A stretch of DNA of 64,000 bases from a phage: the sequence record NC_135728.1; one strand, 5' to 3'. Each line of letters begins with the position of its first letter. Position 1 is the stretch's first letter. Positions 1,427 to 64,000 of the stretch are shown here, in pieces. The position numbers and the translations under genes are program-made. Below the pieces are notes generated by a model. The model saw only the letters and a program-made list of their open reading frames with translations. It did not search any database and had not been told where the DNA came from.

Positions 1427-2558
1427 AGAATATCCACTTATTGAATCTGTAGATTGTCTTGCTGATCTTCTCGAACCTGACGCTATAGTTTATTATGACT
1501 TCGACCAGGTTGCATATCAAGCTGCGGCAAGTTGTGAAAAAAGGACAATTGAGGTAACACACAAAGCCTCCGGACGTAAGAAGATGTTTAAAACACGAAC
1601 AGAGTTCTGGGGGCGGCAGAAAAACACCGTTGGTGGTTGGTTAAAAGCTGAGAATACCAACCGTGAAGCCGCATGTAAAAAGGCTGGAAAGGAGTTTATT
1701 CCGTGGACACGCGAAGATTTCGATGTCTTGGATATCCAAACCCCTGATCCTGTAGAGAACTGCTTACACACAATTAAGTGTAAAGCTAATGCAGTTCTTA
1801 ACTATCTTGGTATTCCGGAAGAGCGATGTGTCGGGGTGTTGGGAGGCACAGGTAACTTCAGACTAGATCTTCCAATGCCGGAAAGATACAAAGCCAACCG
1901 TAACAATACTCTTCGACCACTGCTGCTTGGAGATGCAAGACAGTATCTCCAAAAGCAGTATAATGCTCAAGTGATCAACGGTATCGAGGCTGACGACTGG
2001 TTAGCTATCCAGCAATTTGAAGGTTGGAACCACTACCAAAAAACAGGTAAGTTCAACAAGTTTATTATCTCTATTGATAAGGACCAAAGAACACTACCTG
2101 GACTTGTGTTCGATCCCATGCGAAACGATAAGGGAGATTTTGTAAGGGAAACCCCTATGCTGATCGATAACGGCATGGGAAACATCTTCATGAAGCCTAA
2201 TGGAGAGGTTGGTGGTTACGGAATGCTGTTCTTCGGATACCAAATGCTGTGTGGTGACTCTGCTGACAACATCAAGCCGTATCAAGGACTTATCGGTAAG
2301 GGTAAGTTCGGGGATGCCTCAGCATTCTACCTGCTGTCTCAGTGCAGCACTCCAAAGGAGATGTGGGTGGCTATTATTGATCAGTACAAGAAGTGGTTCC
2401 CGAAAGGTGTTGTTAAGTATACTGACTTCAATGGCATTGATCGTAGAATTTCCGTAGGTCAATGGATGAGTATAATTTTTGACTGTTTGTATATGAAGCG
2501 AACATTCAATGATCAAACAAAACTTGTTAACGTTCTTAGAAATGTTGGAGCAATTTGA
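1419..2558 (+). CDS. 5'-3' exonuclease / flap endonuclease (FEN family)
   Basis: Motifs YKANR, GIEADDWLA and H3TH-like GDSADNIKPYQGLIGKGKFG match the 5' nuclease family of Pol I N-domain/phage FEN. Confidence 0.65.
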   Translation: MSREYPLIESVDCLADLLEPDAIVYYDFDQVAYQAAASCEKRTIEVTHKASGRKKMFKTRTEFWGRQKNTVGGWLKAENTNREAACKKAGKEFIPWTREDFDVLDIQTPDPVENCLHTIKCKANAVLNYLGIPEERCVGVLGGTGNFRLDLPMPERYKANRNNTLRPLLLGDARQYLQKQYNAQVINGIEADDWLAIQQFEGWNHYQKTGKFNKFIISIDKDQRTLPGLVFDPMRNDKGDFVRETPMLIDNGMGNIFMKPNGEVGGYGMLFFGYQMLCGDSADNIKPYQGLIGKGKFGDASAFYLLSQCSTPKEMWVAIIDQYKKWFPKGVVKYTDFNGIDRRISVGQWMSIIFDCLYMKRTFNDQTKLVNVLRNVGAI

Positions 2559-2890
2559 TGACTAAAAATGCTGTAGATAATGCAATTATGGAAGCTGTTT
2601 TTGAGGATGATCATACAACAGGGACACTTAAAACAAAAAACACATTTATTGTTGCCACAGGTATGTGGCGGTTGTACGAAGATGACACTATTGCATACAT
2701 CTTGTATACTGATGATTACGCAGATGACCGTGTATGGTCTGCTGTTTTAAAAGAGGATTGTGAGCTGATTGAGGGCGAGCGGTTATGCATGTTCACCAGT
2801 GTGGAAACAGATGTTAAGCTTTGCTCTCTCGTCTTGTTCAAAGATAAGGCTTATGCTCCTGATGAAGGAGAGGAGGATGAGAGAGCATGA
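2555..2890 (+). CDS. hypothetical acidic protein
   Basis: 111-aa ORF, start overlaps upstream stop. Confidence 0.45.
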   Translation: MMTKNAVDNAIMEAVFEDDHTTGTLKTKNTFIVATGMWRLYEDDTIAYILYTDDYADDRVWSAVLKEDCELIEGERLCMFTSVETDVKLCSLVLFKDKAYAPDEGEEDERA

Positions 2891-3516
2891 GAGAGCGTCT
2901 ATTATCCATAGACCAGTCGTTGACACACACAGCTTGCGTTGTATGGGACGATGGAAAGCCTGTTCATAAGGTTGTGTTACGAACTCAAAGCTCATCTGCA
3001 AAAGAGAAGAAACCAGGGACGGTTTCTTTTGCAACAGCTGCTGAGCGCATTGACTGGATCTGCAAACAGGTCAGATATTATATCCACACGCACGGAGTTG
3101 ACACCGTGGTTATGGAAGGGCTTTCCTTTGGATCACGCGGTGATGCCACACGTGAGCTGGCTGGGCTGTTTTACGGTCTTGAAATTATGCTTTGGGATGC
3201 CTTAGCTGATTGTGAAAATGACGGCCTGTTTAAGGTCCACACAGTGACACCAACAACTGCCAAAAAGTTTGCTCGTAGTCATCTTCCTGAAGAACTTGCT
3301 TTTGAGGAGAAGAAAAAGCTTGACAAAAAGACAGGTAAAGAGCATACTGTGAAGAAACCTGTTACAATGGATAAAAAGTTGATGGTTAAGGCCTGCGAAG
3401 TATCTGAACCTGGGTTCCTAGATGGGATCAATTTGGTACAAGGTAAGGCCGATCTCGCAGATGCTTATTGGATAGGCAGGGCTCATCTGGAGGGATTATC
3501 GCAAAGCGTAAAATAA
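2887..3516 (+). CDS. hypothetical protein (possible RNase H-fold nuclease)
   Basis: 209-aa ORF; SIDQS...VVMEGLSFGSRGD loosely resembles RuvC-like acidic motif spacing; weak. Confidence 0.4.
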   Translation: MRERLLSIDQSLTHTACVVWDDGKPVHKVVLRTQSSSAKEKKPGTVSFATAAERIDWICKQVRYYIHTHGVDTVVMEGLSFGSRGDATRELAGLFYGLEIMLWDALADCENDGLFKVHTVTPTTAKKFARSHLPEELAFEEKKKLDKKTGKEHTVKKPVTMDKKLMVKACEVSEPGFLDGINLVQGKADLADAYWIGRAHLEGLSQSVK

Positions 3517-4073
3517 GAAAGAAAGCTGTCAAAGCCCCAGTTCATAACGGGTGGTTAAAAGATTCTAAGGACATAGCCAACTTTCGAAAAGAATTGTCAG
3601 AGGAGCAGGATGGTCTTGATCCGATCTTGTGCGAGCCACTTCGTAAGCCTTGTTTAGATCATGATCATCTGACTGGTCGTTGCAGGGGTGTTTTGTCTCA
3701 ATGCACTAATACCTTTGAGGGATATGTGCTTAAATACTGGATGAAATACTGTAACGAGTATACAGATTGCAGTTTATCAGAGGCGTTGCGCCGGATGGCT
3801 GACTATTTGGAGAAAGACTACAGCGACTTCCCGCTCCACAAAAACTACAGAGATGATATGACAAAGTTCTTGAGGAGATGCTCTAAAGCTACGATTATTG
3901 CACGAGCAGAATCAGATCTAAATCTTGTCATTAATCCGGAGTGCACCAAGCATGAGGCTATTGAGTTCTACATGCAGGAGTTTATAAAGAAAACTGAGGA
4001 GAGAGATTTCTATGGGGATGAAAAAGGTATTCAATCCTTGCGACTCAGTCCTGATCAGGATGAAATACCGTAA
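3468..4073 (+). CDS. endonuclease VII-like (HNH family) junction-resolving nuclease
   Basis: CLDHDHLTGRCRGVLSQCTNTFEG matches the T4 endonuclease VII signature (LDHDH..G..RG.LC..CN..EG); start uncertain, ORF overlaps upstream gene. Confidence 0.6.
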   Translation: MDRQGSSGGIIAKRKIRKKAVKAPVHNGWLKDSKDIANFRKELSEEQDGLDPILCEPLRKPCLDHDHLTGRCRGVLSQCTNTFEGYVLKYWMKYCNEYTDCSLSEALRRMADYLEKDYSDFPLHKNYRDDMTKFLRRCSKATIIARAESDLNLVINPECTKHEAIEFYMQEFIKKTEERDFYGDEKGIQSLRLSPDQDEIP

Positions 4074-4233
4074 CTGGAAAGGTGTTGTTGCAGATCGCTG
4101 CGTTACTGAGCCTAATTTATGGTTTGGATCTACAGAGTATCATAAAGAAGAGCAGTGGTTGATGCGTGCCTTCGATGTAGACAAGGGCGAATATCGTGAC
4201 TTCGCTTTAAAAGACATTCTTCAGTTTTACTAA
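4060..4233 (+). CDS. hypothetical small protein
   Basis: ORF track 4012..4233; an internal ATG overlapping the upstream stop is the likelier start. Confidence 0.3.
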   Translation: MKYRNWKGVVADRCVTEPNLWFGSTEYHKEEQWLMRAFDVDKGEYRDFALKDILQFY

Positions 4234-4245
4234 GGAATCTTAACG

Positions 4246-5229
4246 ATGATGACAAAGTTAACTCTTGAGCAAATTTTAACACTAAAGCAACAGGGATACA
4301 CTAATAGACAAATTGCTCGTGAATTTTTAGGCCGTGAGTCACGTGAGAGCTGGATCCGACTACAGCTTAAACGTGCACAAGAGAATATGTCAGAGATTGT
4401 AGGAGAAGCAACGGAGCGCTTCCTTGAAGAACACAAAGGTGCTAAAGTTTGGGTGTATGATACAGAGACATCCCCAACAAACGGCTGGTTCTTTGGGCAC
4501 TATAAGACCAACATTCAAACCTGTGGTATTGAAGTTATGCCCTATATGCTAACTTTCGCAGGTAAGTGGTTAGACAGCCCTAGTGTGGTTGACTGCGCTC
4601 TTCCAGATTACAAAATGTGGGATGAAGATATTCACAATGATCTCGAATTGATTCAGGATTTGTGGTATTATCTGGATAAATGCGATGTCGCAGTAGCCCA
4701 CAATTCAGGTTTTGACTGCGGGTGGGCCAACCAACGATTTGCATTTCACGGGTTGCCTCCAACAAGCCCCTACAAAGAGGTTGACACCCTTAAAATGATC
4801 AAGAAGGCATTCCGTTTGAATGCAAACACTTTGGAGTATGCATGCAAATACTTCCAACTGGCCAGACAGAAACTGATTGATCACACATTTGAAATGTGGA
4901 TCAAGTGTGTCCATGGCGATCTTGAGGCATTTAAACAGATGCGGGAGTATAATGTTGGTGATATCCTGTCTCTGGAAGGACTGTATTTGCTGGCTCGCCC
5001 GTTTGCTAAGCAGCACCCAAACATGTCATTGTACTACCAGGACGAGGAGCCAAAGGTTCGTTGCCCACGCTGTGGTGGAGAACACTTTCACGAGGAAGAA
5101 GCTTTGGCATATACTCAGCTGAGTGCATTTAAAACATACCGCTGCGAAGGTTGTGGATCTGTTGTTCGTGACCGTAACAACATCCGTACCAGAGAAGAAA
5201 TGAAAAACACCCTGATTCAGATAATCTAA
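4246..5229 (+). CDS. DEDD-family 3'-5' exonuclease with C-terminal zinc ribbon
   Basis: VYDTETS (Exo I), VAHNSGFD (Exo II), VGDILSLEGLY (Exo III-like), then CPRCGG...CEGCG. Confidence 0.5.
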   Translation: MMTKLTLEQILTLKQQGYTNRQIAREFLGRESRESWIRLQLKRAQENMSEIVGEATERFLEEHKGAKVWVYDTETSPTNGWFFGHYKTNIQTCGIEVMPYMLTFAGKWLDSPSVVDCALPDYKMWDEDIHNDLELIQDLWYYLDKCDVAVAHNSGFDCGWANQRFAFHGLPPTSPYKEVDTLKMIKKAFRLNANTLEYACKYFQLARQKLIDHTFEMWIKCVHGDLEAFKQMREYNVGDILSLEGLYLLARPFAKQHPNMSLYYQDEEPKVRCPRCGGEHFHEEEALAYTQLSAFKTYRCEGCGSVVRDRNNIRTREEMKNTLIQII

Positions 5230-60714: not shown

Positions 60715-61016
60715 CAGAAACCTCCAACTTCTTCAGCAAATGCAGCTGCTGTCGTCGCTGCATCCAGATAGGACTCTAGTTCACGGGCTGCACGTTTGTA
60801 AATTGAGTGGCGCATATCGTTTGGTAGTTGGTGGAAGTCCACCTCTTCACCGTTGTGGTAAACACGCACATCGGTAATTTGTCTAAATCCGTAATAGTCA
60901 ACATCAGAGTCACGGCACTCCGAGTCTGGCAACTGGACAACTGCTTGAGCTTCCACAGTAAACATATCGTCAAGTTCGAAATCGATTTCAAAAGTGTATG
61001 GTTTATAACGTTTCAT
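60714..61016 (-). CDS. hypothetical protein
   Basis: 100-aa ORF, coupled. Confidence 0.45.
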   Translation of the reverse strand: MKRYKPYTFEIDFELDDMFTVEAQAVVQLPDSECRDSDVDYYGFRQITDVRVYHNGEEVDFHQLPNDMRHSIYKRAARELESYLDAATTAAAFAEEVGGF

Positions 61017-61076
61017 CGTTTAGTGCTTCCTTAGTTTTTGTGGGGAGGAGTGCCTCCCCTTTAGACTAACATCTTA

Positions 61077-61418
61077 CTACTGAAGGTCTTCAGAGTCAAG
61101 CTCAAAAAGAATCAAACTGTGCATTCCTGCAGAGAGATCAACGCACCCTGCAATAATAAGGGTCTGATAGTAAGGTTCAGCACCCTCAATGTCTTCGTTA
61201 AAATCTACAACAAGATAGTCACCTTTGTTAAAGGTGTATTTGTCCGATGTAAACGCAAAACCTGCCCAGTCCCCGACTGCAGGATCTTTATCAACCACCT
61301 TTGTTAGCAGCAGGTCTTTTTCACGAGATCTTTTAGTAAAATCGTGAATCACAACATCCTTCTCTTCAGGAGTTGGATTGCCACACACGTAGTTAACTAT
61401 ATTTCTCCACAAACTCAT
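61077..61418 (-). CDS. hypothetical protein
   Basis: 113-aa ORF, start overlaps helicase stop. Confidence 0.45.
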   Translation of the reverse strand: MSLWRNIVNYVCGNPTPEEKDVVIHDFTKRSREKDLLLTKVVDKDPAVGDWAGFAFTSDKYTFNKGDYLVVDFNEDIEGAEPYYQTLIIAGCVDLSAGMHSLILFELDSEDLQ

Positions 61419-62785
61419 ACGTCCCCCTCTTCTGCTCTGGTTTCAAAATCTTTCCTGACAATTTTGTCTAAGTCAGGGAATGTTGTATTGTAAAACTCTA
61501 CGACTCGCGGGTCAACAATAATGTCAACTTCTCTTAGTGGACGCAACAAGTTTATTCCTTGTATTGTCTTAACTCTACTCAAAGCAACATACGTCATCCC
61601 AGGAGAGAAAGCTCCGTTCTTTCCAAGGTCCAGGTTGTAACAATCTAGCGTAAGTCCTTGACTTTTATGAGATGTTACGGCGTACCCAGATTTCAGAGGA
61701 AGTTGCCTGTATGATCCAATCACTACCCTCTCTATAAACTTCTCCATCTTCCTTTCTGCAATGTTGTATCTTTGAGATGGCTTATACTCGTTATTCTCCC
61801 ACAACCTTTGCTCTATGTCAACCTGTGTTCCATCTTCAAGCTCCACCACCACCGCCTTGTTCTTAAATTTAACAATCGTGGCACGTGTTCCGTTAACATA
61901 ATAAGGTACTTTGTGCGTCGGGTCAACATCGTTGGCGGTTATCATAACCTTCATGCCAATTTTCAACTTCATCTCCTGCTCAACTGGCAGGGTGGAGGGA
62001 AACTTACCCTTCATTTCACCAGTGTATACCTTTTCTGGGGCGTTGATGGCATCATAGAACCTTCTGTTCACTTCCTCCGCTTGTTTGTTGGTGGCGCAAA
62101 TTGTGAGAGCGTCTGTTGGTACACCGCCTTTGTAACAACGAGCATTAAGTTCTGCTACAACCTCTTTTATGCGACGACCCTCACGAACACAGTTGAGCAT
62201 TGTGGCAAATCGAATAGACTCCTGTCGGAACTGATCTACTAGGGCTATGTTGTGGAGGTCAAGCTCTTTCCAAGATTCGGTATAGCAACACAGGTCCGTA
62301 TGGTAGAAGTTGAAGTAGGCTTCCTTCTCCATAGAAGAGACAACAGGAGGTGCTTGGTAAAAATCACCAAACAATATGACCTGTATGCCTCCGAAAGGTT
62401 TGTCATTTTTTCGAAGGAAGCGGAGTTTCCTATCCATCTCTATAAACTTATCAGCACGGATCATAGAGATTTCATCGATAATTAGGATGGTAAATGCCTT
62501 GCTTTTCAAAGGCTTTGCTGTTTTTGCCCTTATTGCAGTCCAGTCCGACTCCATGCTCACACCTGCTGCAAGATCGAATGTTCGGTGTGCTGTTGCTCCA
62601 TTAACGTTTAATGCGGCTACCCCTGTCGGGGCAACCGTTATGCAAGAGTCTCCATACATGGACTGGATCATGTTGATGAGATACGTCTTCCCACAACCTG
62701 CGGGTCCTGAAACGAAGACATTCTCACCGCTCATGATTGCAATGAGGGCAGCATCTGTGCCTACGTCATACTGCCCTTTTTCCAT
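61415..62785 (-). CDS. Pif1/RecD-like (Dda-type) SF1 helicase
   Basis: Walker A VSGPAGCGKTYL, Walker B ILIIDEISM, C-terminal GMTYVALSRVKT motif typical of RecD/Pif1 family. Confidence 0.75.
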   Translation of the reverse strand: MEKGQYDVGTDAALIAIMSGENVFVSGPAGCGKTYLINMIQSMYGDSCITVAPTGVAALNVNGATAHRTFDLAAGVSMESDWTAIRAKTAKPLKSKAFTILIIDEISMIRADKFIEMDRKLRFLRKNDKPFGGIQVILFGDFYQAPPVVSSMEKEAYFNFYHTDLCCYTESWKELDLHNIALVDQFRQESIRFATMLNCVREGRRIKEVVAELNARCYKGGVPTDALTICATNKQAEEVNRRFYDAINAPEKVYTGEMKGKFPSTLPVEQEMKLKIGMKVMITANDVDPTHKVPYYVNGTRATIVKFKNKAVVVELEDGTQVDIEQRLWENNEYKPSQRYNIAERKMEKFIERVVIGSYRQLPLKSGYAVTSHKSQGLTLDCYNLDLGKNGAFSPGMTYVALSRVKTIQGINLLRPLREVDIIVDPRVVEFYNTTFPDLDKIVRKDFETRAEEGDV

Positions 62786-63990
62786 TACGCCTCCTCGTAG
62801 ATAATGTCGATGATGTTACCATCACGGTCAACTACGTATTCAATCGGATCGCCATCTTTGCGCGATTCCGGTGCTGCTACGATTTCGTAGCGGCATGCAC
62901 GGCACTTAGCACTGTTGTGTTGGTATGGCACACTAACCACATCCGCAGGGTCAACCATAACCATCATTACGGTGCCATAGCCAGCTGCATACTCTTTGCT
63001 GGCGCAGTGCAGGCCATAAGAACACGCAGCTTCCGGATCATCTTCTACAAAGTTACGAGGCATGGATACAAAAGCACCCTGGTATTGTGGAACTTTACCG
63101 CTGTGCCAATCCACCCACTTGCCTCCGTTAAACTGAACCCCTTTATAGCAAATGATTCGACCATCTTCTGCAACCTGGATGTCATTAGCCTGCATGAAAT
63201 CGTAGAGCATGTTCACAGATTTTGCAGACGGGTTGCGTAGCAGACGGACAAGGAATTTAACATATCGGTCGTCCAGTGTTCCATCTACATAATCTTCCTC
63301 AATTTTCTTTGCAATGGTAGATTGCATCTCTACACCGTAGTAATAGAGCTTACCATCTTTCATAATCAGGTTGTCTGCAAGTGTAGTGAACTCATTCTTG
63401 CGTTCCAACCAGACAAGGATTTCACCAATTGCCTCGTCATATTTCTGAACAGAGATATGGTCGAAGACTTTCTGGTAAACTTCTTCACTTTCACTGCGGC
63501 GAATTTCAAAAATACCTTCGTTGCAGGTGATTTGGAGAAGTTCTCCACAAATAACTACTAAAGGCTCTATGCTTCGAGTCTGTTGTTGAGAAACACTGCT
63601 TACCACCTCCAGCACCGGATCTTTGACTTCTACTGAAGGTTCTTCTGACTTGATTGCTACTCCAGTGAACCCCACACCGTGAACAACGCACAGTGGGTAT
63701 ACCACACTCCAACGTTTAACGGAACCTTCTCCTGAATCTAAGATCATGGCGTACTTACCGTTGTCTTCCAGTCCGTAGCGGAATAAACGGGCCTCTTCGC
63801 GGGTTTCAAAATCCTCACGGGTATAGCAGACACTGTCTCGGTCAGGATCAAACAGCTCTGGGGCACCTACTGCCAGTGTCCATGTTGTAGTACCTTTCTC
63901 AATAGCACATGTGAAACCCTTCTTCTCAAGTTCTGCACGGCGGTCGCGTGCTTCTTTACGAGTTTTGAAATGTTCGTAGATGAAAATCAT
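62785..63990 (-). CDS. hypothetical protein with tandem N-terminal repeat
   Basis: 401 aa; N-terminus carries two copies of an approximately 25-aa motif (FKTRKEARDRRAELEKKGF / FETREEARLFRYGLEDNGK). Confidence 0.5.
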   Translation of the reverse strand: MIFIYEHFKTRKEARDRRAELEKKGFTCAIEKGTTTWTLAVGAPELFDPDRDSVCYTREDFETREEARLFRYGLEDNGKYAMILDSGEGSVKRWSVVYPLCVVHGVGFTGVAIKSEEPSVEVKDPVLEVVSSVSQQQTRSIEPLVVICGELLQITCNEGIFEIRRSESEEVYQKVFDHISVQKYDEAIGEILVWLERKNEFTTLADNLIMKDGKLYYYGVEMQSTIAKKIEEDYVDGTLDDRYVKFLVRLLRNPSAKSVNMLYDFMQANDIQVAEDGRIICYKGVQFNGGKWVDWHSGKVPQYQGAFVSMPRNFVEDDPEAACSYGLHCASKEYAAGYGTVMMVMVDPADVVSVPYQHNSAKCRACRYEIVAAPESRKDGDPIEYVVDRDGNIIDIIYEEA

Positions 63991-64000
63991 AGCTGTCTCC

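Follow-up and report, generated by a model that had tools for sequence, protein, structure and literature searches.

The stretch of DNA analysed in this work (the window, 64,000 nucleotides of the phage sequence record NC_135728.1) carries near its end, at positions 62785-63990 of the minus strand, an open reading frame (ORF) whose product is, judged by its sequence, the rIIB protein of an rV5-like Escherichia phage. We are highly confident in this identity and in a three-part architecture, in which tandem mini-domains of about 45 amino acids each are followed by a linker of about 40 amino acids, predicted to be disordered, and by a core shared with the rIIB protein of phage T4. The N-terminal pair descends from an ancient internal duplication. 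The gene is already annotated as rIIB in many genomes; the duplicated beta-alpha-beta-beta N-terminus, its replacing of the helix-turn-helix (HTH) modules of other rIIB proteins, and its kinship with stand-alone small early proteins seem to be undescribed. The whole explanation, which joins the identity and the architecture to a proposed mechanism for the N-terminal pair, is the best one found and is reasonably probable.

Identity of the protein and its conserved core

The profile of PHROG 609, "RIIB lysis inhibitor", matches residues 132-375 of the protein (E=2.3e-60). The amino acid sequence is 100% identical to rIIB of the Escherichia phages MiataMamis and vB_EcoM-Pr121LW, and 96-98% identical to rIIB of more than 100 rV5-like (Vequintavirus) genomes, where it is annotated under this name. 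Residues 172-371 align by BLASTP with residues 107-304 of T4 rIIB (NP_049889) at 36% identity (E=3e-38), and homologues carry the precomputed Pfam assignment PF26926. The NCBIfam scan of the protein gave no match, and weak Pfam and PDB matches to influenza M1 were dismissed as chance.

The original prediction had placed the ORF correctly (62785-63990, minus strand, ATG start, 401 amino acids) and had taken its product for a replication-module protein that follows a Dda-type helicase and may be a helicase loader or accessory factor. The PHROG match, the 36% identity to the T4 core and the rIIA-rIIB gene pair assign it to rIIB instead; on the coding strand rIIB lies upstream of the helicase gene, and no loader family was matched in Pfam, NCBIfam, PHROG or PDB sequence searches.

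The structure was predicted in two AlphaFold2 runs, one of the full-length protein with 115 sequences and one of residues 1-106 with 14 sequences. The parts of the protein, with confidence given as predicted local distance difference test (pLDDT), are as follows:

62785..63990, minus strand: rIIB gene, 401 amino acids plus stop, ATG start, second gene of the rIIA-rIIB pair of an rV5-like (Vequintavirus) phage
63859..63987, minus strand: repeat unit 1, residues 2-44, predicted beta-alpha-beta-beta mini-domain (strand 3-8, helix 11-23, strands 27-32 and 37-42; pLDDT about 73-89)
63835..63858, minus strand: linker between the units, residues 45-52, of low confidence (pLDDT below 50 for residues 44-55 in the full-length model)
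63682..63834, minus strand: repeat unit 2, residues 53-103, predicted beta-alpha-beta-beta mini-domain (strand 53-61, helix 64-78, strands 82-85 and 94-103)
63568..63681, minus strand: variable linker, residues 104-141, predicted disordered (pLDDT 26-29); its length and sequence vary among homologues
62866..63567, minus strand: conserved rIIB core, residues 142-375, matched by PHROG 609 and by BLASTP to T4 rIIB, pLDDT mostly 80-95
62788..62865, minus strand: C-terminal tail, residues 376-401, which aligns among close relatives only and is absent from T4 rIIB
63007-63024, minus strand: core motif C323-x-x-G-L-H328, invariant across nine rIIB proteins
62899-62907, minus strand: K362 and R364, invariant across the same nine proteins

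The C-terminal domain is confidently folded in the AlphaFold2 model. Residues C323, G326, L327, H328, Y334, P348, K362, R364 and Y368 are invariant in nine rIIB proteins from nine lineages, and C363 and C366, which form a CxxC motif, are conserved in some lineages only. The CxxGLH motif, together with K362, R364, Y334 and Y368, has the look of an active site of the Cys-His kind, or of a site that binds a metal or another ligand. A Foldseek search of the rIIB core against the PDB returned no significant match. The tail of residues 376-401 is, from these alignments, specific to the Vequintavirinae-type rIIB.

One metagenomic protein of 498 amino acids (P0005) presents an N-terminal TPR-repeat region fused to an rIIB core; from about residue 183 on, it shares 95% identity with the window protein. 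This single sequence comes from a contig of 3.3 kb and may be a chimeric assembly, not a real fusion.

The N-terminal repeat

The pattern F.TR.EAR..R..LE..G[FK] fits two segments of the protein exactly, with 10 of 19 residues identical and without gaps:

63913..63969, minus strand: motif copy 1, residues 8-26, FKTRKEARDRRAELEKKGF, end of strand 1 and helix
63754..63810, minus strand: motif copy 2, residues 61-79, FETREEARLFRYGLEDNGK, end of strand 1 and helix

The original prediction had noticed this duplicated pattern and placed the second copy at residues 58-77, about three residues off. It had described a repeat of about 25 amino acids, which is real and forms part of a longer unit, the whole beta-alpha-beta-beta element of residues 2-44 and 53-103. 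In sequence, the repeated entity extends from the helix start, [FYW]-x-[ST]-R-x-x-A-R, to a conserved (R)W-x-V strand. The description of the modules as basic holds for unit 1 (net charge +3) and fails for unit 2 (net charge -2) and for residues 1-103 taken together (net charge -2, isoelectric point 5.5).

The repeat was reproduced on careful alignment and also in the profile comparison and structure prediction by which the original prediction had proposed to check it. The two motif segments are the best ungapped pair of 19-mers in the protein, and their ten identities lie above all of 200 whole-protein shuffles, which reached nine at most. The local BLOSUM62 score between residues 1-50 and 51-110 is 44, a value equalled in 2 of 5000 composition-preserving shuffles; when unit 1 was aligned with the whole rest of the protein, its score was equalled in none of 2000. 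The profiles of the two units, built from eight homologues each, were aligned by hhalign over 36 columns with a probability of 94% and E=1e-7. Both AlphaFold2 runs agree on the order strand-helix-strand-strand, present twice, with pLDDT of about 70-89 within the units. A chance resemblance of two charged helices has to be considered here, since R, E and K are abundant in both segments and such a composition inflates the similarity between helices. However, shuffles almost never equal the observed score, the profile-profile comparison is far from random, the secondary-structure order is the same in both units, and the repeat pattern is conserved in four divergent clades, so that this explanation is effectively refuted.

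Both copies are retained in homologues down to 36% identity. Among 115 homologues the N-terminal part is invariant at R11, A14, R15 and W37 of unit 1 and at F61, R64, R68, F70, R93 and W94 of unit 2. At the DNA level the two motif segments share only 54% identity, and a direct repeat at the spacing of 159 nucleotides was looked for and not detected. When units of different clades are compared, unit 1 mostly has its best score with unit 1, and unit 2 with unit 2. For these reasons the duplication is, from the sequences, ancient and not recent. With a hidden Markov model (HMM) of the unit, unit 1 scores 59.6 bits and unit 2 scores 54.5 bits; the same model found no additional copy in a six-frame translation of the window.

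Fold of the units and resemblance to SPOR domains

Foldseek searches with the full-length and N-terminal models against the PDB and BFVD gave no match with E<0.04. A single unit superposes on the EHEE mini-protein 8shm with a root-mean-square deviation (rmsd) of 1.0 A over 39 columns, which is not significant. EHEE mini-proteins, whether designed de novo or natural, have the same topology and size as the units, and the likeness is one of fold only. Local superpositions were also obtained with ferredoxin-like, ACT and KH half-domains (the N-terminal domain of DAHP synthase, PstA, and KH1), with which there is no sequence relationship; like those on EHEE proteins, they are without statistical significance (E>0.1). 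Many uncharacterised phage proteins of 38-87 amino acids superpose well on the units too. Foldseek matches to tandem LAGLIDADG and KH domains were rejected (rmsd above 10 A).

A hydrophobic stretch, VVYPLCVVHGVGFTGVAIK, lies at residues 95-113 (63652-63708, minus strand), directly after unit 2. Its mean Kyte-Doolittle hydropathy over 19 residues is 1.67, which is borderline for a membrane segment, and it contains Pro, His and Gly. The stretch is not conserved in more distant homologues.

The GenBank record of phage ECML-10 names this protein "SPOR domain-containing protein". Pfam SPOR (PF05036) scores 18.2 bits on the whole protein, under its cut-off of 21, and 22.3-22.7 bits in scans restricted to the N-terminus or to unit 1, where only model positions 12-49 of 76 are covered. 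Matches at E<=1 were obtained for 6 of 14 homologue N-termini. The SPOR scans of unit 2 and of both units of more distant clades gave no match. The unit also superposes on the first half of the SPOR domain of CwlC (1x60; rmsd 1.9 A over 43 columns, E=0.58). Units and SPOR domains (for example B. subtilis CwlC 1x60 and E. coli FtsN) share the beta-alpha-beta start, a [ST]-capped amphipathic helix with a conserved Ala, and a hairpin strand, and the SPOR domain, too, is internally repeated. On the other hand, each unit is without the second helix and the fourth strand of that domain, so that half of the model is matched.

It is very improbable that the units are genuine SPOR domains binding peptidoglycan, that is, denuded glycan strands. 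The score of unit 1 alone, the homologue matches, the superposition on CwlC and the name in the ECML-10 record speak for them. Against this, the whole protein stays below the cut-off, unit 2 and the distant clades are not matched, and the predicted order is beta-alpha-beta-beta, not beta-alpha-beta-beta-alpha-beta: a SPOR fold has about 70 residues and a four-stranded sheet, whereas the modelled units have about 43-50 residues. We also considered residues 1-103 as one SPOR domain with an insertion, and rejected this because AlphaFold2 predicts a strand before the second helix and the beta-alpha-beta-beta order twice. Moreover, the N-terminus, MIFIYEHFKTRKEARDRR, is without a hydrophobic core, its Kyte-Doolittle maximum over 19 residues being -1.1 for windows starting at residues 1-12, and no signal peptide or transmembrane segment was seen there, as judged from hydropathy alone. 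With no export signal, the protein should remain in the cytoplasm, away from peptidoglycan. A full-text literature search combining rIIB with "SPOR domain" found no paper. The resemblance is therefore treated as marginal; the module would at most resemble half a SPOR domain and is not filed as one.

Modules of other rIIB proteins

The unit HMM finds two copies in the rIIB of phage Hena1, which was outside the training set (35 and 30 bits), and two in that of phage Ro1. It finds no copy in the rIIB proteins of T4, Felix O1-like, Kuttervirus, Vibrio, N4-like and Streptomyces phages. As far as these searches show, the duplicated units are restricted to the Vequintavirinae-type rIIB.

In other rIIB lineages, the place of the units was shown to be taken by a single HTH module or by two. 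In Kuttervirus Se-E, HTH_38 matches twice at the N-terminus of rIIB (32.7 bits, cut-off 27). T4 rIIB has one HTH-like segment at residues 7-50, where HTH_7 scores 23.6 bits against a cut-off of 23.8, and the Felix O1-like rIIB gives a weak HTH match. By eye, two HTH-like segments are present in the long N-terminal extension of rIIB of Vibrio phage K476, and one C-terminal segment in that of the N4-like phage DFL12phi1, both unconfirmed by Pfam. The window protein and T4 rIIB share a homologous core, the invariant CxxGLH/K/R/Y positions and a gene placed directly after rIIA; they differ in that the window protein has two beta-alpha-beta-beta units, a longer disordered linker and a C-terminal tail of 26 amino acids, while T4 rIIB has a single HTH-like segment. 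From these comparisons, rIIB looks like a conserved core with swappable terminal modules. Three rIIB ORFs of these other lineages, in the coordinates of their own loci, are:

1442-3094, locus L008 (Salmonella phage Se-E): rIIB ORF
1208-2980, locus L007: rIIB ORF
2096-3526, locus L009: rIIB ORF

Stand-alone relatives of the unit

A single-sequence HMMER search with residues 1-114 against 1.84 billion representative proteins returned two hits, both close relatives, which implies that the module is too short and too divergent for detection from a single sequence. Searched against a set of 5.8 billion proteins, the N-terminal profile gave fragments of the same protein and two weak matches, P0124 and P0125 (E about 0.7-1), and these led to proteins in which the unit stands alone. 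Against PDB sequences a profile search gave spurious weak matches only (a helix of the SK2 channel and an mRNA capping enzyme). P0125 is a metagenomic protein of 98 amino acids, with homologues annotated as hypothetical in 64 phage genomes of the 121Q-type jumbo phages and of the PVP-SE1/GAP31/4MG group.

The N-terminus of the Mydovirus-type rIIB matches phrog_6265 in two stretches (E=1.3e-7), the profile having 42 positions, that is, one unit, and it matches phrog_8127 with E=6.5e-8. For the window protein, the match to phrog_6265 is weak (E=0.12, residues 61-97) and that to phrog_4939 has E=0.0011. An HMM made from rIIB units only matches gp198 of PVP-SE1 (31.5 bits) and gp304 of 121Q (21.5 bits); an HMM made from the units of the rV5 clade alone matches neither of these two proteins. 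The rV5-clade units match the PHROG profiles weakly, and their link to the family depends on positional homology, in the alignment, with the rIIB proteins of the sister clade. The two genes are located as follows:

4001-4333, locus L010: gp198 of PVP-SE1, stand-alone single-unit protein
3998-4393, locus L011: gp304 of 121Q, stand-alone single-unit protein

The proteins of phrog_6265 and phrog_8127, among them gp198, gp304 and the metagenomic P0125, belong to related large enterobacterial myoviruses and share with the rIIB units a signature of about 40 residues, [FYW]-x-[ST]-R-x-x-A-R ... (K/G)RW-x-V. They differ from rIIB in having a single unit, an unrelated C-terminal extension with a basic tail, and no fusion to the rIIB core. 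The stand-alone genes sit in arrays of small early genes. It is conceivable, though in our view doubtful, that the [FYW]x[ST]RxxAR...RWxV unit represents an undescribed family of mobile phage mini-domains, present alone in early proteins of about 40-130 amino acids and duplicated in the Vequintavirinae rIIB, where it would replace the HTH modules functionally. If so, rIIB would be positioned on DNA or on the nucleoid-replication complex, beyond an action at the membrane alone, and the way in which the rII proteins work could be approached from a new side.

In the stand-alone proteins (gp198, gp304, P0124 and P0125) the basic C-terminal tail reads (H/K)DRKGN.V.VYSKR.QV. Matches to such proteins occur at 2-4 places per jumbo-phage genome.

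Proposed function and alternatives

The rIIA and rIIB genes are among the most famous phage genes. According to recent work, rIIB counters RexAB and, in addition, is a protein that further defence systems sense. Together, rIIA and rIIB allow T4 to grow on lambda lysogens expressing RexAB. The rIIB of phage EdH4 is 97.5% identical to the window protein. In EdH4, knockdown of rIIA/rIIB by CRISPRi-ART is reported to lower plating on hosts with lambda RexAB, both genes being dispensable on hosts without RexAB (PMC11879866). RIIB of phage T6 triggers a CARD/gasdermin defence system of Lysobacter (PMC10312443).

In the mechanism we propose, the core together with rIIA would carry the anti-Rex activity. 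The two mini-domains, joined to the core by a flexible leash, would form an exchangeable module for targeting or tethering, with the function that HTH modules have in other rIIB proteins. They would keep the core where it acts by binding an anionic partner, for which DNA or the nucleoid-replication complex is the most likely candidate. Contact would be made by the conserved Arg-x-x-x-Arg with which the helix begins and by the Arg/Trp that open the last strand, residues which the fold topology should bring to the same pole of each unit. DNA or another anionic partner is favoured because the equivalent modules elsewhere are of the HTH type, because these conserved residues are expected at one pole, and because the neighbours of the rII pair are DNA-metabolism genes in several lineages (the helicase here, denB in T4, a polynucleotide kinase in Felix O1-like and an endonuclease in N4-like phages). 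That the module targets or tethers the core by binding DNA or an anionic ligand is offered as a tentative proposal. The original prediction had pointed out that binding of nucleic acid or peptidoglycan is frequent among such short repeated basic modules; the duplication does mark a small module of a kind that can do so, and unit 1 has the marginal Pfam SPOR match.

Several points weigh against this proposal. With the acidic isoelectric point of residues 1-103 and the negative net charge of unit 2, the module as a whole is not basic in this phage. The role of the conserved Arg residues could lie in the structure itself, through salt bridges to E66 and D85, which are conserved as well. The absence of a significant Foldseek match in the PDB and BFVD (all E>0.04) leaves no functional lead from the fold, and the clustering of the conserved residues is a prediction from the fold topology. 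The HTH modules of other rIIB proteins are themselves uncharacterised and mostly below the Pfam cut-offs. In T4, the r1589 fusion of rIIA to rIIB and frameshifts in the B1 segment suggest that B function on K(lambda) does not require the N-terminal part of rIIB, in which case the anti-Rex role might be independent of the N-terminal module altogether.

Two other roles of the units have to be weighed against DNA tethering. They could be protein-protein modules, serving in oligomerisation, in docking to rIIA, or in engaging or decoying a component of host defence, with no nucleic acid involved; we regard this as possible, although on the unlikely side. Small folds of the beta-alpha-beta-beta type serve generically as scaffolds for interactions, small early proteins encoded among typical host-takeover genes of phages contain related single units, the charge of the module here is close to neutral or acidic, and rIIB is sensed by, or acts on, RexAB and the Lysobacter CARD/gasdermin system (PMC10312443). 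However, the presence of HTH-type modules at the same place in other rIIB proteins is not explained in this way, though HTH modules can also mediate protein contacts. Alternatively, the units could attach rIIB to the inner membrane from the cytoplasmic side, through a conserved Arg/Trp cluster that binds anionic phospholipid head groups. The rII proteins of T4 fractionate with the membrane though they are without transmembrane segments, RexAB acts via membrane depolarisation, conserved Arg and Trp are typical of interfacial binding, and the hydrophobic stretch of residues 95-113 follows unit 2. The homologues do not conserve this stretch, however, T4 rIIB is membrane-associated without such units, and an amphipathic helix is not evident, which makes membrane anchoring improbable.

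The gene is ordinary and already annotated, and the overall importance of these results is accordingly modest. A core with interchangeable modules nevertheless offers a concrete and cheap experimental handle on the rII proteins, the analysis ties uncharacterised small early phage proteins to rIIB, and the labels "helicase accessory factor" and "SPOR domain-containing protein" are corrected.

Gene neighbourhood and other observations

The window ends 10 nucleotides upstream of the rIIB ATG, and the stop of rIIA lies just past its end. The neighbouring features are:

63997..64000, minus strand: Shine-Dalgarno-like GGAG, 6 nucleotides 5' of the rIIB ATG, by direct reading of the sequence
61415..62785, minus strand: Dda-like helicase gene, directly downstream of rIIB (PHROG 325 "Dda-like helicase", E=3.4e-111)

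In phage MiataMamis, which is 98.9% identical, rIIA is directly upstream and ends 10 nucleotides before the rIIB start; this ORF matches phrog_612, "RIIA", with E=6.9e-124. The rIIB gene is taken to be transcribed together with rIIA, which precedes it. At 62783-62787 (minus strand) the sequence TAATG overlaps the rIIB stop with the helicase ATG, which suggests translational coupling. A promoter and terminator scan of 61000-64000 gave site counts no higher than in shuffled sequence, with none between rIIB and the helicase gene. The order rIIA-rIIB-helicase is also found in the Vequintavirinae phages Ro1 and Hena1, and it is not kept in T4, Felix O1-like, Vibrio, N4-like and Streptomyces phages; the gene downstream of rIIB is denB in T4, in contrast to the Dda-like helicase here.

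The overlap of stop and start codons, and the finding of this gene order in the same lineages that have the duplicated units, could suggest that rIIB is a loader or accessory factor of the adjacent helicase, with its repeats binding DNA for that purpose. We consider this role highly improbable, even more so than a genuine SPOR domain. The protein is orthologous to rIIB, for which an anti-Rex role is reported in EdH4, it resembles no helicase-loader family, rIIB is not beside a helicase in other phage families, and the co-occurrence of units and helicase may reflect shared ancestry. In addition, the dispensability of EdH4 rIIB on Rex-free hosts suggests that replication is normal after knockdown. 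The conserved rIIA-rIIB-helicase arrangement shows co-expression, not loader function.

Two plus-strand ORFs, at 62917-63240 (107 codons) and 63322-63561 (79 codons), are nested wholly inside rIIB. They carry no annotation in the related genomes inspected and are most likely spurious.

Sixteen GenBank records labelled "Campylobacter phage" (for example MG065635.1, phage C12) are about 95% identical in DNA to this region, and in the one that was checked the rIIB protein is 98% identical. This suggests that the Campylobacter host labels are wrong, or that the preparations contained coliphages.

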